The position numbers and the translations under genes are program-made. Under the pieces are notes generated by a model. It was not told the origin of the DNA. It worked only from the letters and a program-made list of their open reading frames with translations, and ran no database searches. From Sedimentibacter sp. (GTDB taxonomy: Bacteria; Bacillota; Clostridia; Tissierellales; Sedimentibacteraceae), in the NCBI GenBank assembly GCA_032059885.1, contig DAMBZP010000008.1, positions 54,961 through 118,960 on the forward strand: 64,000 bases of DNA. The letters are read 5' to 3'. The stretch's first letter is position 1, and each line of letters starts with the position of its first letter. Shown piece by piece: positions 19,401 through 55,239 of the stretch.

Positions 19401-20201
19401 TCACCTCTTATTTTTTTCAGTATTATCGTTTAAGTAATTTTTAACGCATTTGCCCATTTTCTGCAATGCTGATGAGTGTATCTGTGAAACTCTTGAGTTG
19501 CTTATATTTAAAATACTTGCTATTTCTTTAAGCTTCAACTCTTCCTTGTAGTAAAGTGAGACGACCATCTTCTCTTTTTCATTCAGCTTGTCCATGCTGT
19601 CAATCAACACACTGTACAGTTCCTTAGTCTCTATTTCATTTTCCGGCAGTTCATATCCTGCTAACGCTTCGGTTTCTCTCAGGTTTGCTTCTCCCAACAG
19701 TTCCTCGAATGAAAGTATGCTGGAGCCGTATGCATTGTTAACTATGGTATTATATTCCTTAATGTCTATCTTTAGGTGTTCCGCCACTTCATATTCGCTG
19801 GGGGCCCTTCCCAGTGTGTCTGTCAGCTTATCCTCTGCTTCCTTCACATTTTTATAATCGCTTTTAACCTTTCGGGGTATCCAGTCCTGCTTTCTCACAT
19901 AGTCTATTATGGCTCCCTTTACACGTATTGAAGCATATGTTTCGAATTTTACGTTTTTGGATATATCATACTTCTCAATGACTTCCATTAAGGCAATTAT
20001 TCCTTCGTTGACGATATCCTCCACATCTCCGTAATGCTGATATACGCCTCTGAGCTTATATGCTATTATCTTGACTATGTAGCTGTATCGTTCTATTATC
20101 TGGTTTCTCACATGGATGTCCTTTGTGGCATAATACTGTTCCCACAAATCATATTCATCAATTTTCACATGGCTTTTTTCAGTTAAAATCATACGCATCA
20201 C
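19401..20201 (-). CDS. fliA: flagellar sigma factor FliA/SigD (sigma-28)
   Basis: 266 aa. Sigma-70 region 2 (GIIALMEVIEKYD, FETYASIRVKGAIIDYVR) and region 4 HTH (LKEIASILNISNSRVSQIHSSAL). Confidence 0.9.
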   Translation of the reverse strand: MMRMILTEKSHVKIDEYDLWEQYYATKDIHVRNQIIERYSYIVKIIAYKLRGVYQHYGDVEDIVNEGIIALMEVIEKYDISKNVKFETYASIRVKGAIIDYVRKQDWIPRKVKSDYKNVKEAEDKLTDTLGRAPSEYEVAEHLKIDIKEYNTIVNNAYGSSILSFEELLGEANLRETEALAGYELPENEIETKELYSVLIDSMDKLNEKEKMVVSLYYKEELKLKEIASILNISNSRVSQIHSSALQKMGKCVKNYLNDNTEKNKR

Positions 20202-20208
20202 ACTTTCA

Positions 20209-39918: not shown

Positions 39919-39954
39919 AAAAAAAAAGTAAAATAATCTTAAAATTATTTTACT
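39919..39954 (-). terminator. rho-independent terminator after csrA
   Basis: AGUAAAAUAAU-UUUAAG-AUUAUUUUACU, a perfect 11 bp stem overlapping the stop codon, followed by U8. Confidence 0.8.
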
Positions 39955-40186
39955 TTTCTGAGCTTTTTAATTTGCTTTTTATATTATTCAGGCTGTTCTT
40001 ATCTATTTTTTCGGAAGCAGTAATATTAAATTCACATGTCTCTGCCAGTTCTTTTCTTGTTATTTTTATTTCTTTAGGAGCATTGATTGCTATCTTTACC
40101 TTGTCCTGAGAAATCTCTGAAATAATAATCTCAATGTCATCGCCGATCATTATGGATTCTGATACCTTTCTTTTTATAACAAGCAT
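39950..40186 (-). CDS. csrA: carbon storage regulator CsrA
   Basis: 78 aa. MLVIKRKVSESIMIGDDIEI...KVKIAINAPKEIKITRKE is the canonical CsrA fold sequence. Confidence 0.95.
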   Translation of the reverse strand: MLVIKRKVSESIMIGDDIEIIISEISQDKVKIAINAPKEIKITRKELAETCEFNITASEKIDKNSLNNIKSKLKSSEK

Positions 40187-40635
40187 CTTTTATCCTCCTC
40201 ATCGGAGAGGATATTGTGTCTCAGCGGATAAGCGTTCTGCAGTATGACCTGCTTTGCTTCCTTGGTTTCAGGATTAATGGCAACAGGACTCTTTAAATTG
40301 ACCACCGATTCCTTGACGTCCTCTCTTATTATGGCAATAACAAGATATTTTAAATCTGCTTCGTTTTTTACACCAAGCTCATCCAGATCTTCTTCATTCA
40401 AAGCCGGCTCATAATTTCTTAATATTGTGTATGGGTCAATAAGCACAAATGATAAATCGGTATTATCAAGTGATTGAAGAAACATTACATCATCTTCAGG
40501 ACTATCCTTTAATATCACATAGCTTTTATAATCGTCAAACCCGTACATGCCGCTTGTAAAGCTTATGACATCCTCGGGCCTGACTGTTATTTCTCCAAAA
40601 TCCCTGGTCTTTATATTTAATTCTTTATCAGGCAA
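40174..40635 (-). CDS. fliW: flagellar assembly factor FliW
   Basis: 153 aa. FGEITVRPEDVISFTSGMYGFDDYKSYVIL and NLKSPVAINPETKEAKQVIL patterns. It pairs with csrA. TTG start. Confidence 0.9.
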   Translation of the reverse strand: MPDKELNIKTRDFGEITVRPEDVISFTSGMYGFDDYKSYVILKDSPEDDVMFLQSLDNTDLSFVLIDPYTILRNYEPALNEEDLDELGVKNEADLKYLVIAIIREDVKESVVNLKSPVAINPETKEAKQVILQNAYPLRHNILSDEEDKRCLL

Positions 40636-41236
40636 ATGTATCTATCTCCTTATATTCAGGATCGGCACTCGGTGGAATATAAATAGGCTTACCTATATAA
40701 TTCACTTCAATCCTGGGGTATTCCTTTATGATGAGCTCTATGCTCCCGGGAGTGAACTCTATGCGTGGTCTTTCAATATTCCAGTCAAAATCAAGTCTGT
40801 CCATTTCAAAATTCATTGATATTCCTCCGATATCCCAGGAAATATCAGGTCCGACACCGGGAGCAAACCCGAGATTGAAGTCAACATCACTAAAAAACTT
40901 CCTCATTGCTATTTCAGGAATTGGATTATCCATAAAGTCAACATCAAGCATGAGGTTGCCTTCTCTGGCGTATGATGCTGTAGCTTCATATGCAGCCTGC
41001 ACTCCCTTTTGTGCAATATCAGAAACAGAACGCATAGCGCTTTTTATTCCTGCAGAATATCTGGCCTCTATTGTGTCTATATTTAATCTGGTAGGCCTCA
41101 TCTGCATCTGGAGACCACCCTTGTCTCTCTTAAGTTCAAATGTTGCATCAGTTGTCGCTAATTCATAGCGCGCATTATTAATTTTAAGTTCAAAGGACAT
41201 AGGAACGGTTTTTATCTCTAAAAGCGGTTCTATCAT
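40628..41236 (-). CDS. conserved hypothetical protein in the YviE position (between flgL and fliW)
   Basis: 202 aa. Assignment by synteny with the Bacillus flgK-flgL-yviE-fliW-csrA order. No motif that I can name with certainty. Confidence 0.5.
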   Translation of the reverse strand: MIEPLLEIKTVPMSFELKINNARYELATTDATFELKRDKGGLQMQMRPTRLNIDTIEARYSAGIKSAMRSVSDIAQKGVQAAYEATASYAREGNLMLDVDFMDNPIPEIAMRKFFSDVDFNLGFAPGVGPDISWDIGGISMNFEMDRLDFDWNIERPRIEFTPGSIELIIKEYPRIEVNYIGKPIYIPPSADPEYKEIDTFA

Positions 41237-41248
41237 GGCTGTCTCCTC

Positions 41249-42262
41249 CTATTTCATAAAATCTATAAAGCTGTTTTCAAGTATTCTGTTGCCCATGGAC
41301 AGAGCAGCATTGTAAGCATAACGCTGCATGCTGAAATCAAGTATTGCTTCTGCTGAATCCACGTATTCAACATCAAGTATTTTTTCATTTAAATTGTCCT
41401 GATTGCTTATATTTCGTGTGTTTAAAAACTCCAGATAATTTGTCTTCGCCCCTATGTCTGTTGCATTTACAAGAACCTGTTTTTTCTGTTCTTCATATTT
41501 TTCTATATAAGGAGATATTTCATCTAAAGAGAAATCAGAGTCTCTCAATTTTTCTTTTATTTTCCCTATCAAGGAATAAAGGTCATTGGGAATTTCATCT
41601 CCTGATGGTGAAGTGGCGGTATCCTTTCCGTAGCCCATAAATTTTATACCAGCCATAGACATATTGAAAACTGTATCTTGATTCACTTCACCGGTAGTCG
41701 GGTCAAATTTCATTCCAAGCCCCAAGTCAACATTTATTGTTTGTTCGGAAAGTTCCTTAAAAGTAGTATCGTCCATATCCTTTACAGATATTCCCTTATA
41801 ACATAAATTTCCGTTGCTGTCCAAGGTGAACGGGATTTCATCCCTGTTGGTTCCTCCAAAGACATACTTATCCTCAAACTTTGCATTAAGACATGTAAGC
41901 ACAGACTGCTGAAGGTTGTCAAGCTCCTTTGCACATGCCTCTCTGGCCTCGGAATCCATTGTTCCGGTAATTCCCCTGAGATAAGTGGTGTATATTTTAT
42001 CCATGTTGTTGCTTATTTCCATAAGATTTGTTTCCGCCGAAGTATAAAAGGACTCAACATCTCCTATGCTGGAATCATACATTTCAGTCAGTCTGTATTC
42101 TCTCCTGAGCTTGTACGCCTTTATAGCACCAACCGGATCCTCTGAACCGGTGAAAAATTTTCTTCCGGTGCTTACCCTGTCATGGAGATAGTACAGCTCT
42201 TCGGCTGATTTTCCTAAGTTTCTGACATATTTGTTTGACATCATTCCTGTTGTTACTCTCAT
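41249..42262 (-). CDS. flgL: flagellar hook-associated protein 3 FlgL
   Basis: 337 aa with flagellin-like N and C termini (MRVTTGMMSNKYVRNL...; AILDFSMQRYAYNAALSMGNRIL). Confidence 0.9.
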   Translation of the reverse strand: MRVTTGMMSNKYVRNLGKSAEELYYLHDRVSTGRKFFTGSEDPVGAIKAYKLRREYRLTEMYDSSIGDVESFYTSAETNLMEISNNMDKIYTTYLRGITGTMDSEAREACAKELDNLQQSVLTCLNAKFEDKYVFGGTNRDEIPFTLDSNGNLCYKGISVKDMDDTTFKELSEQTINVDLGLGMKFDPTTGEVNQDTVFNMSMAGIKFMGYGKDTATSPSGDEIPNDLYSLIGKIKEKLRDSDFSLDEISPYIEKYEEQKKQVLVNATDIGAKTNYLEFLNTRNISNQDNLNEKILDVEYVDSAEAILDFSMQRYAYNAALSMGNRILENSFIDFMK

Positions 42263-42272
42263 ATTATCACCT

Positions 42273-43889
42273 CTATACTGCCATTTTGTTAATTAAGGTA
42301 TCAAGCATGTCATCCAGCACGGTCATAAGCCTGGCGGCCGCATTGTAGGACTTGCTGTATTGAAGCAGGTTGACTCCCTCTTCGTTTAAATCCACCGACG
42401 ACATGCTGCTTCTTGCATAATCCAGCTGAAACTGCGCTTCTGAATATGTGTCGTATGAAGTTTGTACATCCGCTTTTTGCAAATTCAGTGTTGTTATTGT
42501 ATTAGTAAGAAATTGCTGAAAATTTCCTTTAAACAGGGATTTGCCATCCTGAGTCTTAAATTCATGATCAATATTAAACAAATTTATCATTCTGAGTATA
42601 TTATCCGTTGCTCCGGTCGTATCATCCTCAGCTCCTGACTTTTCAACTGTCGTGTTGGTTATGTATGAATCCACAGACTCTGCCCAGTCATCTGAAATCT
42701 TAATGTTTCCGGCTGTTATAGCCGGATCGCCTCCTCTTGCCTCGAAAAGAGGTTTATCTGTCCAAATTACTTCTCCTGCTGCGTCTACTTTATGCTTTCC
42801 CGTTAACGGGTCAATTTCAGGAGCTTTATTCAATTTGTTCATCTCTTCTGCAAACTTATTTGCAAGTGTGTCCAGCATACTCTTATAGTATAAAACACCT
42901 TGAGATTTTTCAAAGCTGTCAGCTCCGGCGGCAGCAAAATCACCTTTTCCGTTTAAAAATTTCAGATAGCCTTCTATCTGACCTCCGGCTATTTTTGAAT
43001 TGAAGTCAGAACTTGTATTTCCTTTCGCATCCGTAAACTCCAATACAACTTTGTCTTCGGTTGTAAGAGTTTTATTTATATCAAGCTTTCCCTTCTTGTC
43101 ATTATCAACAAGCTTGATTTTATTTCCATCCACATCTGTCTGTCCTCTCAATACAATGGACAGCTCGTCAATAGTCCTGCCTCCGCCAATAGATACAGGA
43201 GTAGTAACAACTTCTATATCCATATAATCAGCAAGCTTGTCTATAAGCAGATTTCTCTGGTCATTCAGCTCCAAAGCCGGATTACCGCTTAGGTTGTCCT
43301 CTCTTATCTGCTTGTTCAGCTTCGCTATGTTGTCCATAAGCTGATTAACTTCTACTATGGCTCCGTCCTCCAGATAATCCATCTGCTGATCTCTTACTGT
43401 ATCTATCTGGTTGGAGTAATTGTTGAACATCTGTGTAAGCATTTGAGCCGAGGTACGGACAACACCTTCAAATACCGGGTCTGATGGATTCGACATTAAT
43501 GAACGAATCTGCTCAAGCAAATGAGAAAACTGCTCGTTAATTTTATCTGTATTAATCTCATCCATTATTTTTTCCAGGTCACCCAACGCCTCCGACTGCA
43601 CCTGTTCGCTGCCTGACTTGGCAGCTTGTGTTCTGTATCTAAGGTCAAGAAACGCATCTCTGTATTGGCTTGTTCCGTTTGCCTGAACACCCTGTCCTAT
43701 AACTACGCCTGTCGGTCCAAATTTTATTCTGCTTGTATTGAAGCCCAGAGAGGTTGTATCAAGCCTCTGCCTTGTATAACCCTCTGTATTAATATTTGCC
43801 ATGTTCTGCCCTATAACATCCATCACACTTTGGTTTACTTTCAATCCGCTGCTTGCGGTTCTGAATCCTAAAAAAGTCGGTCTAAGCAT
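42273..43889 (-). CDS. flgK: flagellar hook-associated protein 1 FlgK
   Basis: 538 aa. GFRTASSGLKVNQSVMDVIGQNMANINTEGYTRQR N-terminus and VDLNEEGVNLLQYSKSYNAAARLMTVLDDML C-terminus. Confidence 0.93.
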   Translation of the reverse strand: MLRPTFLGFRTASSGLKVNQSVMDVIGQNMANINTEGYTRQRLDTTSLGFNTSRIKFGPTGVVIGQGVQANGTSQYRDAFLDLRYRTQAAKSGSEQVQSEALGDLEKIMDEINTDKINEQFSHLLEQIRSLMSNPSDPVFEGVVRTSAQMLTQMFNNYSNQIDTVRDQQMDYLEDGAIVEVNQLMDNIAKLNKQIREDNLSGNPALELNDQRNLLIDKLADYMDIEVVTTPVSIGGGRTIDELSIVLRGQTDVDGNKIKLVDNDKKGKLDINKTLTTEDKVVLEFTDAKGNTSSDFNSKIAGGQIEGYLKFLNGKGDFAAAGADSFEKSQGVLYYKSMLDTLANKFAEEMNKLNKAPEIDPLTGKHKVDAAGEVIWTDKPLFEARGGDPAITAGNIKISDDWAESVDSYITNTTVEKSGAEDDTTGATDNILRMINLFNIDHEFKTQDGKSLFKGNFQQFLTNTITTLNLQKADVQTSYDTYSEAQFQLDYARSSMSSVDLNEEGVNLLQYSKSYNAAARLMTVLDDMLDTLINKMAV

Positions 43890-43923
43890 ATTCTTCTCCT
43901 TACAATTTCGATATATTTTCTTA

Positions 43924-44382
43924 CTATATTTTCTTGGAAATCATCAGGCTTTTAGCACTGCCGTTTTTATGTTCCGTATCCGTATATGTGTTTTCCTTTT
44001 CTCCCAGTTCATTAAGAGCATTATCAACTCTTCGAAGCCTTACTTCAATCAAAGTCCTGCACATTCCGTTTATTTTTTTTACTTCCTTTAATAATTCATT
44101 AAGTTCATTATAGGCATCATTCAGCATAGTTTTTTCTTCGCCTTGAGACATGTCTATTATTTCACGAAGAGTCTTTCCTTCGAGGCCCTTTTTTTCCAGC
44201 ATTTTTTCTCTTTTTTGCTCATTGCCCCTCATTTTCATGTAATAGGCCTGTTCCTTTGCGACTATATCATCCAATGTTTTAATGTCAGCTTTAATAACCG
44301 CGTCATACTTTTCATATTCCAAGTCTAAAAGATTACTGTACAGTTGAGTGCCTTCTTTGAGAAAATCATACAATAAGTTCAT
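43924..44382 (-). CDS. flgN: FlgN-family flagellar chaperone
   Basis: It sits between flgM and flgK. Helical, LLDLEYEKYDAVIKADIKTLDDIVAKEQ. ATG at 44382 follows GAGGTGG, so I prefer it over the longer ORF-track start at 44427, which overlaps flgM. Confidence 0.7.
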   Translation of the reverse strand: MNLLYDFLKEGTQLYSNLLDLEYEKYDAVIKADIKTLDDIVAKEQAYYMKMRGNEQKREKMLEKKGLEGKTLREIIDMSQGEEKTMLNDAYNELNELLKEVKKINGMCRTLIEVRLRRVDNALNELGEKENTYTDTEHKNGSAKSLMISKKI

Positions 44383-44392
44383 ATGCCACCTC

Positions 44393-44671
44393 TTAACTAA
44401 GCATTTTTCGGGCAATTTCTTCCACATCTATACTATAGCATTCATTATCAATACTATTTTTGATTTTCATCAGCTTATCTGTCCTTGTTTCTTTGTTAAT
44501 ATCAGAAACAATATTTCTTTTTACAGATGCAATGTCTGACCCGGCTTCACCCTCGGTCTTGCTTTTGATATCTATTACATCATATTTTTTTGATTTCACA
44601 GCCTCTCCGTTCTTAATTGACTTTGAGCTGTGATTATACCCCATATAGTTGTTAATATTATGGATTTTCAT
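44393..44671 (-). CDS. flgM: anti-sigma-28 factor FlgM
   Basis: 92 aa. C-terminal KLMKIKNSIDNECYSIDVEEIARKML matches the FlgM sigma-28-binding helices. Confidence 0.85.
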   Translation of the reverse strand: MKIHNINNYMGYNHSSKSIKNGEAVKSKKYDVIDIKSKTEGEAGSDIASVKRNIVSDINKETRTDKLMKIKNSIDNECYSIDVEEIARKMLS

Positions 44672-44741: not shown

Positions 44742-45230
44742 TTATGACATATTCATTATTCTTTCTTCATCCAAAATCAGAAGCACCTCGCTGCTTTTCT
44801 GACCCTTTGCCACACCTCTTACAAAGCTGTTTTTATACAGCTTTCGTATTTCTTCAGTTTCCTCAAAAACAGTTATATTTTCCACTGATAAAACCTCATC
44901 TACGATAAAACCTGCAAAGGTATTATCTTTTTCCAATACAATAACCATTTTCTTTTCTTCATCCGCTGCGGACTCATCTCTTTCAGTTCCGGTTTCAATT
45001 CCAAACAGCACTTTAAGGTTTATAAGCGGAACAACATTTCCTCTCAAATGTATGAGCCCGGACATATAGTCTGCAACATTGGGAACAAAAGTAACCACTT
45101 CCGGCATTATAACTATTGAGGTTATCAGCTTGCTGTTCACCGTATACATATTGTCGTTCAGCTTGAATATTAACCACGGAAAATCAATTTCTTCCATAAC
45201 TTCATCTACATCATAGCTCATTTCAACCAC
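44742..45230 (-). CDS. cheW: chemotaxis coupling protein CheW
   Basis: 162 aa. GLIHLRGNVVPLINLKVLFG and FAGFIVDEVLSVENI CheW motifs. Confidence 0.9.
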   Translation of the reverse strand: MVEMSYDVDEVMEEIDFPWLIFKLNDNMYTVNSKLITSIVIMPEVVTFVPNVADYMSGLIHLRGNVVPLINLKVLFGIETGTERDESAADEEKKMVIVLEKDNTFAGFIVDEVLSVENITVFEETEEIRKLYKNSFVRGVAKGQKSSEVLLILDEERIMNMS

Positions 45231-45233
45231 TCC

Positions 45234-47036
45234 TTATATAAAAGCATTTTCTGCCTTCAATTCAAATTGTTCAACTAATTCCTTCAACATGCTGGACTGA
45301 CCGCTGAGTTCCTCACTGGCTGCAGCACTTTCCTCCGCCGTAGCGGAATTTGATTGAACAACTGATGATATTTGTTCAATCCCCTGTGTTATCTGAATTA
45401 TGGATTGAGATTGTTCATTGGACGCTTCAGAAATCTCATCCACCATTTTCACAGACTGCCTGATATCTTCAACCATTACTTCAATGGAGCGTCTTGTTTC
45501 GTCTGCAATTTTAGTTCCCTTATCCACAGATTTAATGGAGTTTTCAATTAAAAATGCTGTACTTTTAGCTGCTTCTGCACTTTTCGAAGCAAGGTTCCTC
45601 ACTTCATCTGCTACAACAGCAAATCCCTTGCCTGCAGAACCGGCTCTGGCTGCCTCTACAGCCGCATTTAAAGCCAGTATATTTGTCTGGAATGCTATAT
45701 CGTCAATTGCTTTAATTATTTTTGATATTTCATTTGTGGCTTTCTTTATGTCATACATGGCTTCGTTCATCAGTTGAACCTGCTTGCTGTTTTCCTCAAC
45801 ACCTCTTGCAGCATCCTGCGTTATTTTGCTTACATCCTTTGATCTTTCCGCATTTGTTTTAATTTGCTCTGAAATTTCATTTATGGTTGCGGACAGCTCT
45901 TCAATTGAGCTTGCCTGTTCCGTAGTACCCTGGGACAACACCATAGCGCCGCCTGAAACCTGATTTGCTCCGGCTGAAACCTGTTCAGCTGCTTCATTTA
46001 TATCTTTAAGTGTTCTGTTAAATGATGATATTATTTTCTCAACAGAACTTTTTATTGGAGCAAATCCTCCTATAAACTCTATATCTATTGAAGAGGTTAA
46101 GTTCCCTCCGGCCATCTCACTTAATATCCTGTCTATTTCTCCTACATAAAGCTTCAGTGTTACGATTGTGCTGCTTATTGTTCTAGCTGCTACACCTAAT
46201 TCGTCATTTGATGAATAACTTATATTGTAGTCTAGATTACCGCTGCCTATGGCATCTGCCGCATCCGTTATTTCCTTTATAGGCTTTTTCAACCCCCTGA
46301 CAACAGCTGTCACCAATGCTGTTGATACTATAAGGCTCAGTATAAGCATAACTGAAAGAACAATTACCATATTCTCACTTGTTCTATTTGAGTTTTTAAC
46401 AAAGTTTTGAGCAGTAATTTCCAAGTTTCTGCTTATTTCATCAAGTGTCTTATTAATGGAATCCATGGCAGGTGTCAGTTCCTTATCCAGGACACTCAGT
46501 GTCTGCGTATTTTGTCCTTTATCCGAGAATATAAAAAGTACAGAAAGCTTGTCACTTACCCCTGATGCAATTTTGAAATCTGCATCCAGCTGCTCTATGA
46601 CAGTTGGAAATGCACCCAAGTATTTCTTCATCTGCTCTATGGATTCATTGGCAGCTTTGAAATTTCCGGTTATTTCCGTGGTATATTCCTTAACCTCCGG
46701 GCTGCCTGCTGCCACTGCTGATTTATAAATTGATTTTTCAATATTGCTTAACGCAAGCTTCGTCTTCCAGGACAACACTTCAACTTCATAGCACTCATCA
46801 TAAAAACGGTTGACATTTGATGCTATATCGGCAATATTGAAAAGCGCAATTCCCATGGATATGGCGAATATAATCAGGATTGTCGTAAAACATATTATTA
46901 ATCTTGGTGCTATCTTAACATTTGAAATTTTAAACCTTTTTTCTGCGTTGGCAGTTTTAGCTTTTCTTCCCGTTTTTTTTATCTTAAGTTTTTTTTCTTT
47001 AACTTCTGATTTTCTTTTCTTTTTGAAAATTTTCAC
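45234..47036 (-). CDS. methyl-accepting chemotaxis protein with basic N-terminal cytoplasmic tail
   Basis: 600 aa. GTG start with GGAGGA 4 nt upstream. Two TM helices flank a helical sensor region, followed by a HAMP domain. The highly conserved signalling hairpin is present ([48 protein letters not shown]). Confidence 0.93.
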
Positions 47037-47063
47037 TTTGTCCTCCTATGCTGCTCTGTAGCC

Positions 47064-47558
47064 CTATATTTGTGTAATAAGTCCAAGCTCCTGCTCATTG
47101 AGAATTTTTTTCAAATCCATCAGCAGTACAATATTGTTGTTTACCTTGGCAATTCCTATAATATAAGTATTGACATAGTCATTGCCCATTTGAGGAGGAT
47201 TTGATATGTTGTCCTTGTATATATTTATTACCTCATTTACAGAATCAACAATAAAACCTATATAAGCTCCGTTTATATTGGTAACTATAATACAGGTTCT
47301 TTCGTTATATCCTATTTCTTCCTTTTTAAGTCTTAATCTTACATCAATAATCGGGATTATTGTTCCGCGTAGATTTATTACTCCCTTTGCATATGAAGGG
47401 AATTCGGGAACAGCTGTGATATCCTGCATTCCTACTATTTGTACAACATCTGATATTGAAATTCCAAATAGCTGTTTATCTGTATAAAAGGTAAGGTACT
47501 TGTCCCTTAATGTATCTTCATCCAAATCATTATATAACACATTAATCTTATCCTGCAC
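47064..47558 (-). CDS. cheW: chemotaxis coupling protein CheW
   Basis: GVINLRGTIIPIIDVRLRL and YIGFIVDSVNEVINI motifs. The start is uncertain. The ORF track uses GTG at 47567, which overlaps the GAGGTG RBS, so I favour the GTG at 47558. Confidence 0.85.
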   Translation of the reverse strand: MQDKINVLYNDLDEDTLRDKYLTFYTDKQLFGISISDVVQIVGMQDITAVPEFPSYAKGVINLRGTIIPIIDVRLRLKKEEIGYNERTCIIVTNINGAYIGFIVDSVNEVINIYKDNISNPPQMGNDYVNTYIIGIAKVNNNIVLLMDLKKILNEQELGLITQI

Positions 47559-47591
47559 AAAAATCACCTCATAATATATTTGATATTTATA

Positions 47592-47618
47592 CTATCGGCA
47601 TGTTTGGATAAAATTTTA
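47592..47618 (-). promoter_or_regulatory. sigma-28 (SigD/FliA)-type promoter upstream of cheW-mcp-cheW-flgM...
   Basis: Minus strand reads TAAA-N15-GCCGATAG, about 34 nt upstream of the cheW start. This is a near-perfect match to TAAA-N15-GCCGATAT. Confidence 0.65.
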
Positions 47619-47638
47619 GTAAATTATTAAATTAAATA

Positions 47639-48094
47639 TCAGTGCCTTGGATTTTTCCTGACAATGAGGACCGCTTTAATAACTTCTGTTGTTGCCTCTT
47701 TTCCCATTTCCTTTAATTCATGAATCTTTTCTTTCACTTCATCATCCGTTGCAACTATGTACATCGGCTTAAGATTGTTCATTGCAATAGCTGTTATGTC
47801 CATCCTGCAGCGCTGGCACTTGCAGCAGTTCACCTTTTTAAGCGTAACATCAAGCTTGCTGAGAACAAGCTTTTCAGTTATATTATACAATGATGACTCA
47901 ATCTTATTGTTCTGAATTATGTTTGATTCCCTGTCCTGAAATACCGGTGCTTCTTTTGAGAAATTATTACCGCTGGCATTTACAGCGGATTCGTTTGTTC
48001 CGCTTCTCGCTTCTTCAGTTTCTTTTTTTAAGCTTGCTGGCATTATTTTTTGATACATTAATTCTCTGTCAAATGTCTTTTTTATCTTTGCCAT
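47639..48094 (-). CDS. ComFB-domain protein with basic/disordered N-terminal extension
   Basis: C-terminal NITEKLVLSKLDVTLKKVNCCKCQRCRMDITAIAMNNLKPMYIVAT matches the ComFB signature. ATG at 48094 lies 1 nt after the ParA-like stop, with AGAGGG upstream. The ORF-track TTG at 48112 is the alternative. Confidence 0.75.
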   Translation of the reverse strand: MAKIKKTFDRELMYQKIMPASLKKETEEARSGTNESAVNASGNNFSKEAPVFQDRESNIIQNNKIESSLYNITEKLVLSKLDVTLKKVNCCKCQRCRMDITAIAMNNLKPMYIVATDDEVKEKIHELKEMGKEATTEVIKAVLIVRKNPRH

Positions 48095-48095
48095 T

Positions 48096-48857
48096 TTACA
48101 GCCCTCTTTCAATAAATTCTTCGACTAAGCTCATATAATCCTGCATTGCCGCATTTTTAGGAGAATAGCTGTAAATATCCTGCTGATTTGTTTGTGCCTC
48201 CATAACAGCTACACTTGACCGTATTGTTGAATTAAATATTCTTGTATCGAGCTGGTCAGCTATTAATTCCGCAGTACCTTTGATTTCCCTGCCTAAAACA
48301 GTTCTCTTATTGTACTTGGTAAGCACTATTCCCTCAACCTTCAAATAAGGATTGCAGTATTTTTTTACCCTGTCAATGGTTTCGGAAAGCTGTGCGATTC
48401 CCTGCAGGCTGAATATGTCGGCAAGCATTGGAATAACTATATGGCCGGAAGCTGTAAATGCATTGACTGTCAATATGCTCAGAGCCGGAGGCGTATCAAT
48501 AAATATGTAATCATATTTGTCCATAACAGGCGTCAATGCTTCCTTAAGCAAAAATTCCCTTCCTGTCTGTGTAAACTCCAGTTCTATACCGCTTAATAAA
48601 ATATTGGACGCAATAATATCAAATGAAGGCATTTTTTGAATTGAAAATGCAGTTTCAGCCTCTCCCTTTAATATTTCATAAATTGTTGGACAATCTTCTG
48701 TTTCAGCTCCCGAGCTGAAGCTTAAATTTGACTGCGGGTCCAGGTCTATGCATAAAACCCTGTATCCCTTTAATTTATAGCCCGCCGCAACTGCACTTGT
48801 GGTAGTGGTCTTGCCTACACCGCCCTTTTGATTTGATATGGAAATTACTTTAGCCAT
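48096..48857 (-). CDS. orphan ParA/Soj-family ATPase
   Basis: 253 aa. Deviant Walker A ISNQKGGVGKTTT, LDPQSN, and Walker B YIFIDTPPAL. No ParB-like gene is adjacent. Confidence 0.9.
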   Translation of the reverse strand: MAKVISISNQKGGVGKTTTTSAVAAGYKLKGYRVLCIDLDPQSNLSFSSGAETEDCPTIYEILKGEAETAFSIQKMPSFDIIASNILLSGIELEFTQTGREFLLKEALTPVMDKYDYIFIDTPPALSILTVNAFTASGHIVIPMLADIFSLQGIAQLSETIDRVKKYCNPYLKVEGIVLTKYNKRTVLGREIKGTAELIADQLDTRIFNSTIRSSVAVMEAQTNQQDIYSYSPKNAAMQDYMSLVEEFIERGL

Positions 48858-48900
48858 TTATTAGAACTCCTTAAAATACATTTTTCGACAATTTTATTTG

Positions 48901-48929
48901 ATTGTAACAAAAAAGTTTTATTTTAACAA
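48901..48929 (-). promoter_or_regulatory. sigma-A-type promoter upstream of the ParA-like gene
   Basis: Minus strand reads TTGTTA-N17-TACAAT, about 45 nt upstream of the ATG. Confidence 0.55.
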
Positions 48930-48933
48930 TATA

Positions 48934-48969
48934 AAAAGATTAAAAATCTTTATGAATTTTTAATCTTTT
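48934..48969 (-). terminator. stem-loop overlapping the yqeB stop; likely terminator of the purine island operon
   Basis: AAAAGAUUAAAAAU-(8 nt)-AUUUUUAAUCUUUU, a perfect 14 bp stem followed by a U/A-rich tail. Confidence 0.5.
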
Positions 48970-49759
48970 CCATCTCTATTAGTACTGCTTCCAATACAGC
49001 ACCGCCAATTGCCCGCGCTTTATCTGAAATTGTGTAACAATTCTTCAACTGATCAATCCGAGGATCGATATCGCCTATTTTAAAACCCTTTGTAACATAG
49101 GTTCCTTCTCTTATTAACCCTCTTACTAATCCATCAATTTCGGAATTGATAATCTGCCCGTCTACATGGGCGATTACGTCACCGCTTTTCACCGTATCTC
49201 CGATACTGTGCTCCAATGTAATTGTCCCATTACACGGGGATCTTAAAACCCTTTCTGTGGTATATCCTCCTATATTTCCCGGCATACCGGTATTTGACTC
49301 TGCAGAACCTTCAAATATCAGTCTCCCTAAATTATGCCCCCTGTTGCTTTCAATCACTACATCACAGTCTCTGCCTGCCGTAAATCCGGGCCCGACACAT
49401 ACCGTAACCGGGGCAATGTTCTTGTGCATTCCTGTATTTCTTTTCGCTATAATTGCATCCACAACTGCAGCAGGTTTGAATTTTTCTATATATTCTCCCC
49501 TTGGATCAACTATGACAGGAACATAATCATCAGCCCACGCGTGATATATTTCAACAATATTTTTTACCAAAACCGAAGTTATTCCTTCAAGCTCCATTTT
49601 TCCTTCATATACAGCTTCCGAAAAGCATACAGTTCTTCTTATAGATGTTGGGTTTTCAATTTCCAGTACAAGTACCCTGAAGCCGGTTCTGTGAAGCTTT
49701 TGTATTACACCTGATGCAATATCTCCGCCTCCTCTGACTATTACAGCTTCCCCTTTCAC
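48950..49759 (-). CDS. yqeB: selenium-dependent molybdenum hydroxylase system protein, YqeB family
   Basis: 269 aa. VIVRGGGDIASGVIQKLHRTGFRVLVLE N-terminus. Clustered with yqeC and ygfJ, as in the E. coli ygeW-xdhD region. Confidence 0.75.
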   Translation of the reverse strand: MKGEAVIVRGGGDIASGVIQKLHRTGFRVLVLEIENPTSIRRTVCFSEAVYEGKMELEGITSVLVKNIVEIYHAWADDYVPVIVDPRGEYIEKFKPAAVVDAIIAKRNTGMHKNIAPVTVCVGPGFTAGRDCDVVIESNRGHNLGRLIFEGSAESNTGMPGNIGGYTTERVLRSPCNGTITLEHSIGDTVKSGDVIAHVDGQIINSEIDGLVRGLIREGTYVTKGFKIGDIDPRIDQLKNCYTISDKARAIGGAVLEAVLIEMEKIKNS

Positions 49760-50346
49760 CTGTTCACCTTCTTTAAAGCTATGTCATAATCCTCCGCAGT
49801 ATCTATGTCCATAAGCTCATCCTCAGACTGTATCTGCACATTAATAACTTTATCCATGTTTTCTTTCATTACTGCCTTGCCTCCCGTATCTCCTTCTAAT
49901 TTCAACAGCTGTTCCTTGAACACTTCGGAAAAAATAACAGGATTTCCGGCAATGGTATCATTACATGCCCTCACAATGTTGTGTGGACTTTTTTCAAATA
50001 CATTTAACATTTTTATAATTGTACCTTCTTTTATAAAGGGCTGGTCGGCAACAAAAAACATGTATCCATCAGATTCTTTAGAATTTTTAATCCCAAGTTT
50101 TACGGAAGCACTTTGACCAAAATGTGACATTTCATTTCTCACAGTCTTAAACCCTCTGCCGCAAGCTGATTTTAGAATTTCATCATCCTTTGCAACAACA
50201 ATGATTTCATTGAAACAACCGCTGCAGTTTTCAATTGTTTCAAATATGTATTCATATAAATATTTTTCTTTAATTTTCATTTGAAGCTTATTTTGATTCA
50301 TCCTCTTTGATAATCCCGAAGCCATTATTATTGCGCTAACATTCAT
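49756..50346 (-). CDS. ygfJ: molybdenum cofactor nucleotidyltransferase, YgfJ/MocA family
   Basis: MNVSAIIMASGLSKRMNQNKL is the MobA/MocA-type N-terminal NTP-binding motif. ATG at 50346 overlaps the yqeC end (ATGAATGTTAG). The ORF track extends to 50373. Confidence 0.8.
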   Translation of the reverse strand: MNVSAIIMASGLSKRMNQNKLQMKIKEKYLYEYIFETIENCSGCFNEIIVVAKDDEILKSACGRGFKTVRNEMSHFGQSASVKLGIKNSKESDGYMFFVADQPFIKEGTIIKMLNVFEKSPHNIVRACNDTIAGNPVIFSEVFKEQLLKLEGDTGGKAVMKENMDKVINVQIQSEDELMDIDTAEDYDIALKKVNR

Positions 50347-51076
50347 AATACACCTCTTTTTCCAAAGAGCCAAAAGAAATTTTAAAATTAAATGGTTTAT
50401 TTACTGACAATTCCTTAAGATATATTGACAATTCCTTGGAAATCAAAATTTCTTCATCTGTATCAGCCTTGTTTAGAAACAAATATAAGCTTCCCTTCGA
50501 ATTCTTGAATATTCCGTTTTTATCAGAGCATATTTTTTTTATTGCTTCAAAATCAATATATTCACTTGTGTCTGTCAATATGTTAAATTCATCAAATCCA
50601 TAAATAAACGACATGTCTGCCTTTTTGTTTATTAAATTTACAGGTATAATCCCCACTGTCTTATTCGTTTTTTTTAACACGGGAGGCTCGTGACTTTTCC
50701 AGCCTTTAATGGGAAGGTTGCGAGAACCGTCGGCTTCTATAAGTATCACATCAAAATCGTTTATCAAAACTTCCAGGTCATTATCGTCTATACCAATTAG
50801 TTTTTTTGATTCCTTATCTATGCTTTTTGAGATAACTGTTATAGTATTTTTTTTGCTTGCGCTTCGATTCCCAACATAACTTTCTATATCTGTATATAAA
50901 TAATCATATTCCTCCGTTGAAGGCTCCGCTATCTTGGTGCTTGTGCTCACCAGTACACTGTATTCATCTTTTAAACACTCAGCCAGCCGAAAAAGCATTG
51001 TTGTTTTGCCTCCGCTGCCTACAATTGATACAATACTGCCCTTTTTTATATTAAATAATTCAGTTATTTTTTTCAT
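50336..51076 (-). CDS. yqeC: selenium-dependent hydroxylase accessory protein YqeC
   Basis: 246 aa. P-loop IVSIVGSGGKTTMLFRLA and EADGSR motifs. Confidence 0.8.
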   Translation of the reverse strand: MKKITELFNIKKGSIVSIVGSGGKTTMLFRLAECLKDEYSVLVSTSTKIAEPSTEEYDYLYTDIESYVGNRSASKKNTITVISKSIDKESKKLIGIDDNDLEVLINDFDVILIEADGSRNLPIKGWKSHEPPVLKKTNKTVGIIPVNLINKKADMSFIYGFDEFNILTDTSEYIDFEAIKKICSDKNGIFKNSKGSLYLFLNKADTDEEILISKELSIYLKELSVNKPFNFKISFGSLEKEVYYEC

Positions 51077-51100
51077 ACAATCACCAAAGCTTCATATTAT

Positions 51101-51141
51101 CAGGCATAAATATCATCCATGAAGATTGATATTTATGCCTG
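51101..51141 (-). other. perfect 15-bp intercistronic stem-loop between xdhD-like and yqeC
   Basis: CAGGCATAAATATCA-(11 nt)-TGATATTTATGCCTG. No U-tract follows it on the minus strand. Confidence 0.6.
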
Positions 51142-51154
51142 TTATTACTGCCGC

Positions 51155-53761
51155 CTATTTTTTGTAAGCTGTATTTTCCAGAGGCAATTTATATCTGAAT
51201 CTGCCATCTTTTTTATAATAAGCATTTTGCAATGCAGGAGCTCCGGGAATAACAACAATTTCTCCAAGCCCTTTAGCACCGAAGGCAACGCCATTGCGTT
51301 CATTCTTTTCTATTAGATGAACCTCCACAGGAGGCATTTGTGTGGACCTGAATAACCCCAGTGTACCAAATTTAACCTGCGGCACACCATCCTTAAGCGG
51401 AAAATCTTCTGTAAGTCCATATCCAAGAGCCATAGCCACCCCGCCTTCAATCTGCCCTCTTGCGGATACAGGGTTAATTGCCCTTCCCACATCATGGGCA
51501 GCTACAACCTTTACAAGCTTGCCTTCCTTGTCAATTATAACAAGCTGAGTTGCATAGCCATAAGCAATGTGGCTTACAGGATTTGGTTTTGGTGAACCTA
51601 GTGGATCTGTTTTAAAATCAAATTCACCCTTATATAATTTCCCTTCCAATTCCTCCAGAGTCTTACCGCTGTCCAAATCATCCTTTAGCTCAAGTGAAGC
51701 CACATGCGCCGCTTCACCTGTAAATACGGTCTGCCTTGATGCTGTGGTAGTTCCGGCGTTGGGAGAATACTTTGTATCGGGATGCTCCACAATTACCTTA
51801 TCTCTCGGCAATCCTGTTGTTTCGCATACAACCTGAAATATAACCGTCTGTACTCCCTGGCCTATTGCCCCGGCAGATGAACGTGCATGAACCTTGCCTC
51901 CGGTAACATACAGATTACAGCGTCCGGGGTCAGGTACGGCAACACCAAGTCCGGCATTTTTCATAGCTGAAGCAATACCCACATAATAATCGGAGTCATT
52001 TTCATATTTATCAAAGGTATCCTTCAATACTTCCAATGTTTCTGCCATTCCTGTTCCCTCGTCTGCAATCTGACCGTTAGGAAGTGACTGACCTGGTCTG
52101 ATAGCATTTTTGTATCTTATTTCCCATCCGTTCATACCCATTTCCTCAGCAAGCTGATTAATCAGGCATTCAATAACAAATGCTGATTGGGTAACTCCAA
52201 ATCCTCTGAATGCTCCTGCAGGAGGATTGTTTGTATAATAAGCGTTTCCTTCTATATCAACATTCTGATAGTTGTAAGGTCCTCCGGCATGTGTACATGC
52301 TCTCTGAAGAACAGGCCCTCCAAGAGAACCATATGCTCCGGTATCAGCGGTAAGCCTTGCCTGCATGCCTTGAAGAATACCATTTTCATCACAGCCTATT
52401 TTACAATAAATTTTCATTGCATGCCTCTTCGGATGATAGTTAATGCTCTCCTGCCTGCTGAAGTTTACCTTTACCGGACGTTTCAGAAGATATGCGCAAA
52501 GTGCAGCCTGGTGCTGGACGCTCATATCCTCCTTGCCTCCGAAACCGCCTCCCACAACTGCGCTTCTTATTCTTACCTTTTCCTTCGGTATTCCAAGATA
52601 AAGAGCCAATTCCTCATATTCGTCATATATGCCCTGTCCTCCTGTAATGACCGTCACACCGTCTCCATCAGGCACACCAACCGCAGTTTCGGGCTCCAGG
52701 AATGCATGTTCTGTAGGTGGAACTTCAAATGTTCCTTCCACCACATATTTTGAATTTTGCAACGCTTTTTCGGCATCTCCCCTTTTTACTTCCTGATGTG
52801 AAAATAAATTGTTTTGGGGAACGGTATGCTTTCCGAACTGCATGAATCCTTCTTCGTGGATTTGATGCGCACCGGGTGCCGCCGCCTGGTCAGTGGTAAC
52901 TATGGGCTCTAATTCTTCATATTCAACTTTAACAGCTTTCACAGCGGCTTCAGCCTGTTCCCTGCTTTCAGCCACAACCATTGCAACCGTATCACCTATA
53001 CACTTGGTCTGTTCTCCTATATCAATCATACCAGGCCAGTCATGTGCCAAATGACCTATATATCTTTCCCCCGGGATGTCCTTAGCTGTAAATACGGCAA
53101 CGACTCCAGGCATCTTTACGGCTTCTGATACATCAATTGATAAAACCAATGCGCGTGCGTAACGGCTGAATACATTTTTACCGTGAAGCATTCCTTCAAA
53201 TTTATAGTCATCAGCATATTTTGCTATTCCCAATGCCTTATCTCTGGCATCAATTCTCAGAATTTCCTGACCTATCCTAACATTTGCTTCTTCTTCAGGA
53301 ATTACATCCTTTTCTCTGAATATTTTAGCTGCAAGCAAAATAGCTTCTTCTATTTTTGCATAACCCGTACATCTGCAAATATTTCCTCTTATTGCTTTTT
53401 TAACATCATCACGAGAAGGATCATTGTTTTGATCAATGAGTGCTTTAGCGCTGATTACCATACCAGGTATGCAAAATCCGCACTGCACAGCTCCGGCTTT
53501 GGCAAATGCATAGCTGTAAACCTCTTTTTCCCTGTCAGACATCCCTTCTACCGTTACTATGCTTTTTTCTGCAAACCTGGATACCTTCATTACGCATGAC
53601 TTAACAACCTTTCCGTCCGCAAGCACAGAACATGCTCCGCAAGCCCCCTCATTGCAGCCATTTTTTACGGCTGTCAAATTTAAATCATCTCTTAAAAAAT
53701 CCATAAGACTTTTATCTTGTTCTGTTTCATAAACCTTTCCGTTTACAATTAAAGAATACAT
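51155..53761 (-). CDS. xdhD: molybdenum hydroxylase, fused [2Fe-2S] and molybdopterin subunits (XdhD-like, selenium-dependent family candidate)
   Basis: 868 aa. N-terminal CNEGACGACSV and GFCIPGMV...CRCTGY 2Fe-2S motifs are followed by aldehyde oxidase/xanthine dehydrogenase Mo-binding domains (GGGFGGKE, AFRGFG). Confidence 0.9.
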   Translation of the reverse strand: MYSLIVNGKVYETEQDKSLMDFLRDDLNLTAVKNGCNEGACGACSVLADGKVVKSCVMKVSRFAEKSIVTVEGMSDREKEVYSYAFAKAGAVQCGFCIPGMVISAKALIDQNNDPSRDDVKKAIRGNICRCTGYAKIEEAILLAAKIFREKDVIPEEEANVRIGQEILRIDARDKALGIAKYADDYKFEGMLHGKNVFSRYARALVLSIDVSEAVKMPGVVAVFTAKDIPGERYIGHLAHDWPGMIDIGEQTKCIGDTVAMVVAESREQAEAAVKAVKVEYEELEPIVTTDQAAAPGAHQIHEEGFMQFGKHTVPQNNLFSHQEVKRGDAEKALQNSKYVVEGTFEVPPTEHAFLEPETAVGVPDGDGVTVITGGQGIYDEYEELALYLGIPKEKVRIRSAVVGGGFGGKEDMSVQHQAALCAYLLKRPVKVNFSRQESINYHPKRHAMKIYCKIGCDENGILQGMQARLTADTGAYGSLGGPVLQRACTHAGGPYNYQNVDIEGNAYYTNNPPAGAFRGFGVTQSAFVIECLINQLAEEMGMNGWEIRYKNAIRPGQSLPNGQIADEGTGMAETLEVLKDTFDKYENDSDYYVGIASAMKNAGLGVAVPDPGRCNLYVTGGKVHARSSAGAIGQGVQTVIFQVVCETTGLPRDKVIVEHPDTKYSPNAGTTTASRQTVFTGEAAHVASLELKDDLDSGKTLEELEGKLYKGEFDFKTDPLGSPKPNPVSHIAYGYATQLVIIDKEGKLVKVVAAHDVGRAINPVSARGQIEGGVAMALGYGLTEDFPLKDGVPQVKFGTLGLFRSTQMPPVEVHLIEKNERNGVAFGAKGLGEIVVIPGAPALQNAYYKKDGRFRYKLPLENTAYKK

Positions 53762-53762
53762 A

Positions 53763-55148
53763 TTAGTCTTCCTTTCCTTTTTTACCTTTTCTTTTTACAA
53801 ATTCACCGTCTCCCTTGTCAGCCTTCAGTTTGCCGTCCTCAACAAGTATGCTGCCTCTTTGAACAACAGTTTCAACAGCATATCCTGACTCAAATCCCTC
53901 ATATACTGTATAATCTGATCTACTGTGCCTGTTTTTCTGCTCAATTATTTTATTTTCTTTTTTAACAATAATTATATCAGCGTCAGACCCTATTTGAATA
54001 GTACCCTTTTTAGGATACAGTCCAAAAACCTTAGAAGGATTTACAGACAATTTTTGAACCAGCCTGTTAATATCTATGCCTCTTTTTATTCCTTCAGTTA
54101 AAATAATCTCTATTCTTTCTTCAACTCCGGCTACTCCTCCGGGGGCAATTCTGAAATCATTTCTGCCATCCAGCTTCTGATTAAGGAAAAAGGGACAATG
54201 GTCTGTTGCAATTACATTAACCTCATCATCTTCAATTCCCTTCCATAAAGCTTCAACATCCTCGCTTCTTCTCAAAGGAGGTGCCATAATATATCTTAAA
54301 CCTTCATAATTTTCTTTTTTATAATATTCTTCAGTCAATGTTAAATATTGTGTACAAGTTTCGCAATATATGTTTCTTACTCCTCTTTTCCTTGCAGATA
54401 TTATTTCATTCAAGCCCTTTTTTGTGGATACATGAACAAAATAAAGATGAGGATATCCTGCAATTTCACTTAAGTATATCATCCTGTTTATGGCCTCTGC
54501 CTCTGTTGAATCCGGTCTTGTAACAGCATGATATATAGGTTCGGTCTTTCCGTTGTCTCCGTAATGTTTTCTTAAATATTGTATTGCACCGTTATTTTCC
54601 GCATGTACCGCAATAACAGCACCTGCTTCTTTTGCTTTTATCAATACACCTAATATTTCTTCATCATTTAACATGTTATCATATGTCATATAAACCTTGA
54701 AGCTTTGAATTCCTTCGTCAACCAACTCATTCATTTCATTTAAAATATTTTCATCAACATGCTGAATCACTCCGTGAAAGCTGTAATCAATAACAGCTTT
54801 TCCGTCAGCGAGTTCATGATATTCATTTATTTGATGGTGCAGGCCGCACCCTTCCGGTCCGAAAGCAATGTGATCTACAATTGTTGTGGTTCCTCCGCAG
54901 ACAGCTGCAACCGTTCCTGTATAGAAATCATCTATCGCTCTGTATTTACCTAAATCCAAATCCATATGTGTATGCACATCAACGCCCCCCGGAAGAACCA
55001 GCCTTCCGTCAGCATCAATTGCAGGATAATCTTTTCCGTTGCCTAATCTTTCACCTATTTCTTTTATCTTTCCGCCTTCAATCAATATATCGGCGTTGTA
55101 GCTTCCTTTTCCATCGTTTATTAATCCATTTTTTATTAATAAATTCAC
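53763..55148 (-). CDS. hyuA: D-hydantoinase/dihydropyrimidinase family amidohydrolase (HyuA-like)
   Basis: 461 aa. PGGVDVHTHM and VCGGTTTIVDH metal-binding motifs. Its position is as in the E. coli ygeZ/hyuA locus. Confidence 0.9.
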   Translation of the reverse strand: MNLLIKNGLINDGKGSYNADILIEGGKIKEIGERLGNGKDYPAIDADGRLVLPGGVDVHTHMDLDLGKYRAIDDFYTGTVAAVCGGTTTIVDHIAFGPEGCGLHHQINEYHELADGKAVIDYSFHGVIQHVDENILNEMNELVDEGIQSFKVYMTYDNMLNDEEILGVLIKAKEAGAVIAVHAENNGAIQYLRKHYGDNGKTEPIYHAVTRPDSTEAEAINRMIYLSEIAGYPHLYFVHVSTKKGLNEIISARKRGVRNIYCETCTQYLTLTEEYYKKENYEGLRYIMAPPLRRSEDVEALWKGIEDDEVNVIATDHCPFFLNQKLDGRNDFRIAPGGVAGVEERIEIILTEGIKRGIDINRLVQKLSVNPSKVFGLYPKKGTIQIGSDADIIIVKKENKIIEQKNRHSRSDYTVYEGFESGYAVETVVQRGSILVEDGKLKADKGDGEFVKRKGKKGKED

Positions 55149-55201
55149 AGCACCCTCCTTGATAAAATATAAATTTTACCAAATAAATAAAAAGAAGATA
55201 T

Positions 55202-55229
55202 GGTCAATCTTATATCCATAAGATTGACC
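55202..55229 (-). terminator. rho-independent terminator after the permease gene
   Basis: GGUCAAUCUUAU-GGAU-AUAAGAUUGACC, a perfect 12 bp stem followed by AUAUCUUCUUUUUAUUUAUUU on the minus strand. Confidence 0.8.
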
Positions 55230-55239
55230 TATATCCGAA

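Follow-up and report, generated by a model that had tools for sequence, protein, structure and literature searches.

The 64-kb stretch of Sedimentibacter sp. DNA analyzed here (contig DAMBZP010000008.1; hereafter the window, whose positions serve as coordinates throughout) contains, beside flagellar and chemotaxis genes, a gene for a ParA-like ATPase (parA) that is followed by a gene for a 151-aa protein with a ComFB domain (comFB). Comparison of this gene pair with its relatives indicates that the ATPase and the ComFB protein are likely to be cognate partners. All genes of the parA–comFB region lie on the minus strand, and domains were called by Pfam. The TAA stop codon of parA (48096–48098) is separated by 1 nt from the ATG at 48094 with which comFB (47639–48094) begins, and the encoded protein consists of a basic N-terminus, a low-complexity linker, and a ComFB domain; this coupling and this domain order, both proposed in an initial annotation of the window, are present as described. 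The features of the cassette, in the direction of transcription, are as follows.

48935–48968, minus strand: A/T-rich 13-bp hairpin with a T-run, a probable terminator, identified by direct reading of the sequence; it overlaps the stop codon of the yqeB-like gene
48901–48929, minus strand: sigma-A-type promoter TTGTTA-N17-(TG)TACAAT with an extended −10 element, serving parA–comFB, found by scan
48882–48890, minus strand: TGTCGAAAA element in the parA leader, after the −10 box and before the ribosome-binding site, found by by-eye alignment
48096–48857, minus strand: parA, gene for a ParA/Soj-type deviant-Walker-A ATPase of 253 aa (Pfam AAA_31, CbiA)
48038–48094, minus strand: comFB codons 1–19, the N-terminal peptide MAKIKKTFDRELMYQKIMP, a proposed ParA-interaction tag defined by conservation
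47894–48037, minus strand: comFB codons 20–67, an acidic low-complexity linker of variable length, defined by predicted local distance difference test (pLDDT) scores and by homologs
47639–47893, minus strand: comFB codons 68–151 and stop, the ComFB domain (PF10719, 1.5e-19) with a CCxCxxC zinc motif and a C-terminal VRKNPRH

Related loci were collected from a scan of representative genomes (28 loci) and a scan of metagenomes (54 loci), with more obtained by exact look-ups. These loci, which span identities down to ~30% for ComFB and ~50% for ParA, are not phylogenetically independent and form 55 clusters at 90% identity. By tblastn, a ParA gene lay directly upstream in 79 of 79 loci whose ComFB protein carries the N-terminal peptide, normally at a spacing of 1–8 nt or with overlapping genes, compared to 0 of 6 complete ComFB genes that are tail-less, some of which stand behind pilM-pilN-pilO. 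When the search was started in reverse, from ParA homologs at 64% identity, a ComFB gene followed in 3 of 3 cases (Caproiciproducens, Caproicibacter, and a Eubacteriales genome). This strict co-occurrence of tag and ATPase indicates that the conserved functional unit is the two-gene cassette, and a cognate ParA/partner pairing, which the initial annotation had suggested, is likely on these genomic grounds. A HMMER search over 1.84 billion representative sequences returned 722 ComFB-family clusters at E ≤ 1e-10. Among the top 150, which represent clusters at 50% identity, 71 matched the strict N-terminal motif; 38 N-termini were read among those that failed it, and these mostly showed a relaxed form, x-(D/N)-K-(E/D)-x-M-Y-x-K-I-M-P-(S/T), with the tag absent in at least 3 of those read (P0141, P0164, and P0182). 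The tag thus seems to be present in the majority of these 150 representatives. One family member, P0158, is a 473-aa ParA–ComFB fusion, natural or assembly-derived, with a long Pro/Gln-rich repeat linker.

Alignment of homologs divides the ComFB protein into a near-invariant N-terminal peptide, a linker of variable length and sequence, and a conserved ComFB domain. The peptide has the consensus M-A-K-x-K-K-x-F-D-(R/K)-E-x-M-Y-x-K-I-M-P, in which K5, K6, F8, D9, M13, Y14, K16, I17, M18, and P19 are invariant; no other segment of the protein is as well conserved, and the peptide persists to ~30% overall identity. An AlphaFold2 model placed a helix at residues 10–17, disorder at residues 23–59 (pLDDT <50), and a ComFB domain with a pLDDT of ~90; the length of the linker is highly variable among homologs, and family members reach 572 aa via linker expansion alone. 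Residues 71–149 match PF10719 (ComFB), with a score of 70.3 bits where the cut-off is 25, and match no other family, in keeping with the earlier proposal that the partner is a ComFB protein rather than a ParP of the CheW-domain type. The only significant Foldseek matches were B. subtilis ComFB (BsComFB; 4WAI, target-normalized template-modeling score of 0.77) and Synechocystis CdgR with bound cyclic di-GMP (c-di-GMP; 8HJA). By its PF10719 score and its predicted fold, the 151-aa protein is a member of the ComFB/CdgR family. Samir et al. (PMC12448109) list the dimer, zinc, and c-di-GMP residues of BsComFB, which we mapped through a HMMER alignment to 4WAI. The zinc cysteines C25, C27, and C30 correspond to C91, C93, and C96 here, and the dimer residues N4, E7, D33, N40, and Y46 to N71, E74, D99, N106, and Y112; all of these are invariant. 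From the c-di-GMP site, D33, A36, L37, N40, and V47 are retained as D99, A102, I103, N106, and I113; of all the c-di-GMP contacts listed, 6 of 8 are kept.

The ParA-like protein matches Pfam AAA_31 (8e-52) and CbiA (1e-23) and contains the motifs KGGVGKT and LDPQSN on which its first identification was based. Its deviant Walker A motif (NQKGGVGKT, residues 9–17, including the signature lysine), D38 and D40 of Walker A', and D121 of Walker B are invariant in 12 diverse aligned members of the subfamily, and D40 occupies the position of the catalytic residue D60 in M. xanthus ParA; judged by these motifs, the protein is a member of the ParA/MinD (A/D) ATPase superfamily. The solved structures closest to it come from M. 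xanthus (ParA; 8RAY, 6e-41), from a mycobacterium (an orphan ParA), and from Thermus and Helicobacter (Soj). Osorio-Valeriano and colleagues found that L150 and L152 of M. xanthus ParA are contacted by the N-terminal helix of ParB, and the equivalent positions here are L126 and I128, so that the hydrophobic loop is retained. As the initial annotation had noted, ParB has no counterpart nearby: no ParB-like signature (GERR) was found in the window, and all neighboring genes are otherwise assigned. The window also contains no second KGGxGK[ST] protein, making the ParA-like protein the sole ParA/MinD-type ATPase in the 64 kb. Two other assignments were rejected, a defense-system protein (PADLOC gave a local P-loop match only) and an FlhG (no C-terminal amphipathic membrane helix was seen, and the window contains no FlhF-type GTPase motif).

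The cassette appears to have its own transcription start. The sigma-A-type promoter, which had been predicted before parA as TTGTTA-N17-TACAAT, is present at 48929–48901. The pattern alone is within chance expectation (21 promoter-like sites in the window compared to 17.8 ± 4.3 in shuffles); however, this promoter is kept in Sedimentibacter and in other Tissierellia whichever gene stands upstream, yqeB being that gene in most Sedimentibacter loci. The TGTCGAAAA element recurs in nearly all aligned Sedimentibacter and Tissierellia parA leaders and may be an operator or a leader signal. The upstream hairpin, an equivalent of which is kept in relatives, probably separates parA from the metabolic operon upstream; with fewer than 3 G-C pairs, it escaped the terminator scan.

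Across relatives, the cassette adjoins late flagellar genes in four or five distinct arrangements. It stands in tandem upstream of cheW...flgM in Sedimentibacter; embedded in Acutalibacteraceae, in the order FapA-ParA-ComFB-U476-FlhB(C)-PilZ-(HD-GYP)-fliD-fliS...flgM-flgN-flgK; after cheC in L026; divergent from flgM-flgN-flgK-flgL in L060, L070, L087, and L092; and convergent with a late flagellar operon in L090. Genes of c-di-GMP metabolism and response (PilZ, HD-GYP, EAL-HDOD, and dCache-PAS-GGDEF) are frequent neighbors. The comFB gene of B. subtilis, too, stands shortly before the flgM operon, and its product inhibits flagellar function there when c-di-GMP is bound. The flhA gene of the window is directly followed by the FliA/SigD gene (19401–22266, minus strand) with neither flhF nor flhG between them, as it also is in L026, L029, and L054, and neither gene was found in the 64-kb flagellar/chemotaxis region, where an FlhF-type GTPase motif was looked for.

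From these observations, we propose that parA–comFB may be an autonomous, translationally coupled two-gene cassette whose products act as cognate ATPase and partner in flagellar motility, a proposal to which we give an even chance. The cassette would be driven by its own sigma-A-type promoter. The N-terminal peptide of the partner, a short amphipathic helix flanked by lysines, would dock on the ATP-bound ParA dimer and modulate its ATPase activity, and the flexible linker would join this peptide to a dimeric, zinc-stabilized ComFB domain. This domain would bind a target and, as a cyclic dinucleotide, probably c-di-GMP or c-di-AMP. Most likely, the target would be the flagellar motility apparatus or a late-gene checkpoint, and the module could thus gate flagellar placement, number, or activity by a second messenger where flagellar operons are without flhF and flhG. 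The N-termini of ParB, MinE, McdB, and ParP dock on their partner ATPases and modulate their activity. As a general rule, the N-terminus by which partners act on A/D ATPases is charged (PMC10241942). The tagged ComFB protein fits this pattern and also the model for ParB, an N-terminal helix with central arginine or lysine residues. Substitution of FlhF/FlhG by the cassette is an attractive idea, the one argument for it being the absence of these genes from their canonical position. It is possible, and we suggest it tentatively, that the cassette represents an unrecognized class of the ParA/MinD family in which a cyclic-dinucleotide-receptor adaptor with a ParA tag sets flagellar number, placement, or activity without FlhF/FlhG.

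Several observations weigh against this proposal or parts of it. The arginine used for non-specific DNA binding (R189 of B. subtilis Soj, R238 of M. xanthus ParA) is replaced by Ala217 and is Ala or Val in 12 of 12 aligned members; the C-terminal 60 residues of the subfamily are net acidic, with a mean of −2.9; and no amphipathic membrane-targeting helix was seen in the ParA-like protein, whose C-terminus (...YMSLVEEFIERGL) is Soj-like. Together, these properties suggest that the ParA-like protein may switch rather than form positioning gradients. In the c-di-GMP site of the ComFB domain, K41 is replaced by Asn107 and Y55 by Lys121, so that nucleotide binding, given the residues that are retained, is plausible but not assured. 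In an AlphaFold2 model of the P0158 fusion, made with the ParA alignment, the last ParA helix is extended across the junction (237–294), which is uninformative on docking. The flhF and flhG genes could be encoded outside the window. Finally, at most one flagellar gene lies within 10 kb in 13 of 32 well-flanked clusters (~40%), including the Caproiciproducens/Caproicibacter clade and several Tissierellia, and some lineages have the cassette amid housekeeping genes.

Because the DNA-binding arginine is missing, a regulatory switch is a serious alternative, even if we consider it unlikely: ComFB would sense c-di-GMP or c-di-AMP and toggle the ParA-like protein between monomer and dimer, and the ATPase would in turn control a partner protein such as a transcription factor, sigma-D/FlgM, or proteins of replication or division. 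Soj with DnaA and FleN with FleQ are precedents for ATPase switches. The acidic C-terminus, the lack of a visible membrane helix, and the diversity of genomic contexts are all consistent with a switch, as is the reported action of cyanobacterial ComFB/CdgR through transcription-factor binding; the place upstream of flgM, with possible read-through, parallels comF–flgM of B. subtilis. However, no target for a switch is identifiable from the sequence, a long flexible linker joined to a dimeric cargo-type domain is typical of a positioning adaptor, and the genomic evidence is for the most part as compatible with positioning as with switching. We regard it as quite unlikely that the cassette serves a process other than motility (type IV pili or competence, placement of cell-wall or division machinery, or sporulation) and that its proximity to flagellar genes is incidental. 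The clusters with few flagellar genes nearby (13 of 32) point in that direction, as do the tail-less ComFB genes in pilM-pilN-pilO operons and the Caproiciproducens-type loci that lie a few genes from mreC-mreD-PBP2-minD, but at least five independent arrangements beside late flagellar genes (tandem, embedded, after cheC, divergent, and convergent) are unlikely to have arisen by chance, and no non-flagellar neighbor recurs across clades, DUF436 recurring within a single clade.

The initial annotation had favored another role for the pair, the positioning of chemoreceptor arrays, on account of the genes that follow comFB in the window.

47593–47618, minus strand: sigma-D (sigma-28) type promoter TAAA-N15-GCCGATA, start of the cheW-mcp-cheW-flgM... 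unit, found by pattern scan
47064–47567, minus strand: cheW (CheWa; Pfam CheW, 2e-35)
45234–47036, minus strand: mcp, gene for a transmembrane methyl-accepting chemotaxis protein (MCP; Pfam 4HB-HAMP-MCPsignal) with a Lys-rich cytoplasmic N-tail at residues 1–45
44742–45230, minus strand: second cheW (CheWb; Pfam CheW, 1e-23), within the adjacent sigma-D unit
39950–44671, minus strand: flgM-flgN-flgK-flgL-DUF6470-fliW-csrA late flagellar operon (Pfam)

As had been described, cheW-mcp-cheW lies downstream of the cassette with an additional TAAA-N15 promoter of its own. This TAAA-N15-GCCGATA site is the sole one of its kind in the 64 kb (0.07 expected) and is kept between comFB and cheW as CTAAA-N15-(G/A)CGATAT in all Sedimentibacter loci examined; the strict pattern matched only 3 relative loci, and the variants were recognized by direct reading of the intergenic regions. 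The conserved sigma-D promoter and the independently conserved parA promoter and leader indicate that the che genes belong to the sigma-D late regulon, and cheW-mcp-cheW is thus the first part of this downstream regulon rather than a dedicated cargo. CheWa is 48% identical to the CheW encoded at the end of a flgN-flgK-flgL-DUF6470-fliW-csrA-pilZ-cheW operon in L090, an unrelated Clostridiales lineage, and no cheW was found elsewhere in the 64-kb flagellar/chemotaxis region; from these comparisons, CheWa appears to be the organism's ordinary late-regulon CheW and not part of a dedicated extra array. The N-tail of the MCP, ~45 aa before the first transmembrane segment (46902–47036, minus strand), is extremely Lys-rich, varies in length and sequence among Sedimentibacter species, and recalls the nucleoid-binding tail of FrzCD.

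The ATPase and the ComFB protein look like a cognate pair (79 of 79 compared to 0 of 6), but chemoreceptor arrays are not supported as their cargo. The array reading holds that parA–comFB is an analog of ParC/ParP or PpfA/TlpT in which ComFB or the basic tail of the MCP serves as a tether. It can point to the cheW-mcp-cheW genes that directly follow comFB here and in the majority of Sedimentibacter loci, to a terminator scan that gave no coding-strand terminator-like site between comFB and cheW, making read-through from parA–comFB into cheW possible, to a Lys-rich N-tail in most Sedimentibacter orthologs of the MCP, to the CheWa ortholog that adjoins and converges on the pair in L090, an independent lineage, and to the reported use of basic N-tails by TlpT and FrzCD. 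Set against this, Sedimentibacter-type loci, a single genus-level lineage, are the only ones in which cheW-mcp-cheW comes after the cassette, and even there the MCP is missing from L009, L020, L034, the L035 group, and L051 and its Lys-rich tail from L025 and L046; every other lineage retains the pair without adjacent che genes. The sigma-D promoter sets the cheW genes apart as a late-regulon unit, the partner is without a CheW-like domain, and the MCP is a transmembrane receptor and not a cytoplasmic cluster former. The array positioning of the initial annotation is very unlikely because the synteny with chemotaxis genes that it led one to expect in relatives is largely lost; what adjacency in a single genome had suggested did not survive comparison with relatives.

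The proposed cassette shares features with several known systems and differs from each. Like ParC/ParP of Vibrio and Pseudomonas, it consists of an orphan ParA-type ATPase and a small partner whose N-terminus binds the ATPase or, here, would bind it, beside cheW and mcp in the window, but the partner here is a ComFB protein without a CheW-like array-integrating domain, the pair is not part of a cheA/cheB operon, and its che linkage is confined to one genus. In Rhodobacter sphaeroides, PpfA is a ParA-like ATPase encoded near TlpT, a chemoreceptor with a basic N-terminus, the peptide of which is presumed to activate that ATPase; TlpT is cytoplasmic, whereas the MCP here spans the membrane and is dispensable among relatives, it is the ComFB protein rather than the receptor that bears the conserved peptide, and the canonical DNA-binding arginine for nucleoid-based partitioning is absent. 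Chromosomal ParA (Soj) with ParB (Spo0J) is closest in sequence, and its ATPase agrees with the ParA-like protein in length and motifs. The loop of hydrophobic residues on which the ParB peptide docks is kept, and each partner begins with a short helix, predicted in the present case, that has basic residues near its center. However, there is no ParB or parS here, the partner is unrelated to ParB, its tag (KKxFDRExMYxKIMP) differs from the ParB motif, and the equivalent of Soj R189 is Ala/Val.

FlhG (FleN/YlxH), which acts with FlhF or FleQ, is another ParA/MinD-family ATPase found in flagellar clusters. FlhG controls flagellar number and placement, and FleN works with the c-di-GMP receptor FleQ. 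The ATPase here differs from it in being Soj-like rather than MinD-like, with no membrane helix seen, no flhF neighbor, and another partner. BsComFB and cyanobacterial CdgR/SyComFB have the same domain, fold, zinc cysteines, and dimer residues as the tagged ComFB proteins, and the gene for BsComFB also lies upstream of the flgM operon, but neither protein has the N-terminal peptide, the linker, or a ParA neighbor, and K41 and Y55 of the BsComFB c-di-GMP site are not conserved in tagged ComFB. McdA/McdB is likewise an adjacent gene pair for an A/D ATPase and a small, largely disordered partner with a charged N-terminal tag; its cargo context is unrelated, its partner has a different fold, and McdA binds the nucleoid.

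Full-text literature searches found no report that links ComFB to a ParA-type ATPase or to an N-terminal tag, in line with the initial annotation, which knew of no description of this architecture. The neighborhood section in the main text of the family-defining ComFB paper mentions flagellar, pilus, hfq, and GGDEF genes and no ParA, and the database names are merely 'late competence development ComFB family protein' and 'ParA family protein/Soj'. The cassette, which is widespread in Clostridia, thus apparently constitutes a ParA/MinD system whose partner belongs to a new class and whose pairing is undescribed. Many ParA/MinD ATPases are orphans whose partner and cargo are unknown, and in this case comparative genomics alone identifies the partner, a member of ComFB, a newly recognized family of receptors for c-di-GMP/c-di-AMP. 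ComFB proteins have no known molecular targets, not even in B. subtilis, and the pairing offers a concrete candidate effector for a large ComFB subfamily and suggests a route by which second messengers could gate a ParA-type machine. If the proposal is true, a ParA-type ATPase would be under direct second-messenger control, and the cassette would be a candidate for flagellar patterning in clostridial lineages without FlhF/FlhG.

Some further observations concern genes near the cassette or in the window. A tail-less ComFB paralog of 91 aa (14966–15241, plus strand) is the last gene of a plus-strand operon that also encodes U476 (8778–10208, no Pfam match), a protein with an FlhB C-terminal domain, an FtsA/PilM-like protein of 680 aa, a PilZ protein, and an SLH-domain protein; in Acutalibacteraceae, the U476-FlhB(C)-PilZ trio stands directly behind ParA–ComFB. 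Within a few genes of the cassette, genes were found for an HD-GYP-type HD_5 protein (L029, 13171–14241), an EAL+HDOD protein (L070, 10465–11748), and a dCache-PAS-GGDEF protein (L094, 6097–8745), in three lineages. In the Caproiciproducens/Caproicibacter clade (L057, L093, and L095), a DUF436 gene always comes after ParA–ComFB, and mreC-mreD-PBP2-minD-mgsA lies 3–4 kb downstream of the cassette. Upstream of parA, a gene cluster at 48950–56600 (minus strand) was identified by eye as of the selenium-dependent molybdenum hydroxylase/purine-catabolism type, with yqeB-like, MobA-like, and yqeC-like genes, a gene for an 868-aa xanthine-dehydrogenase-type protein, a dihydropyrimidinase-like gene, and a permease gene; this cluster is unrelated to the parA–comFB finding. 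Downstream, csrA is followed by the large flgB...cheD flagellar operon. The DUF6470 gene (40628–41236, minus strand) lies between flgL and fliW, and its occurrence at the same position in L090 and L092 suggests that it is an uncharacterized member of the clostridial late flagellar operon.

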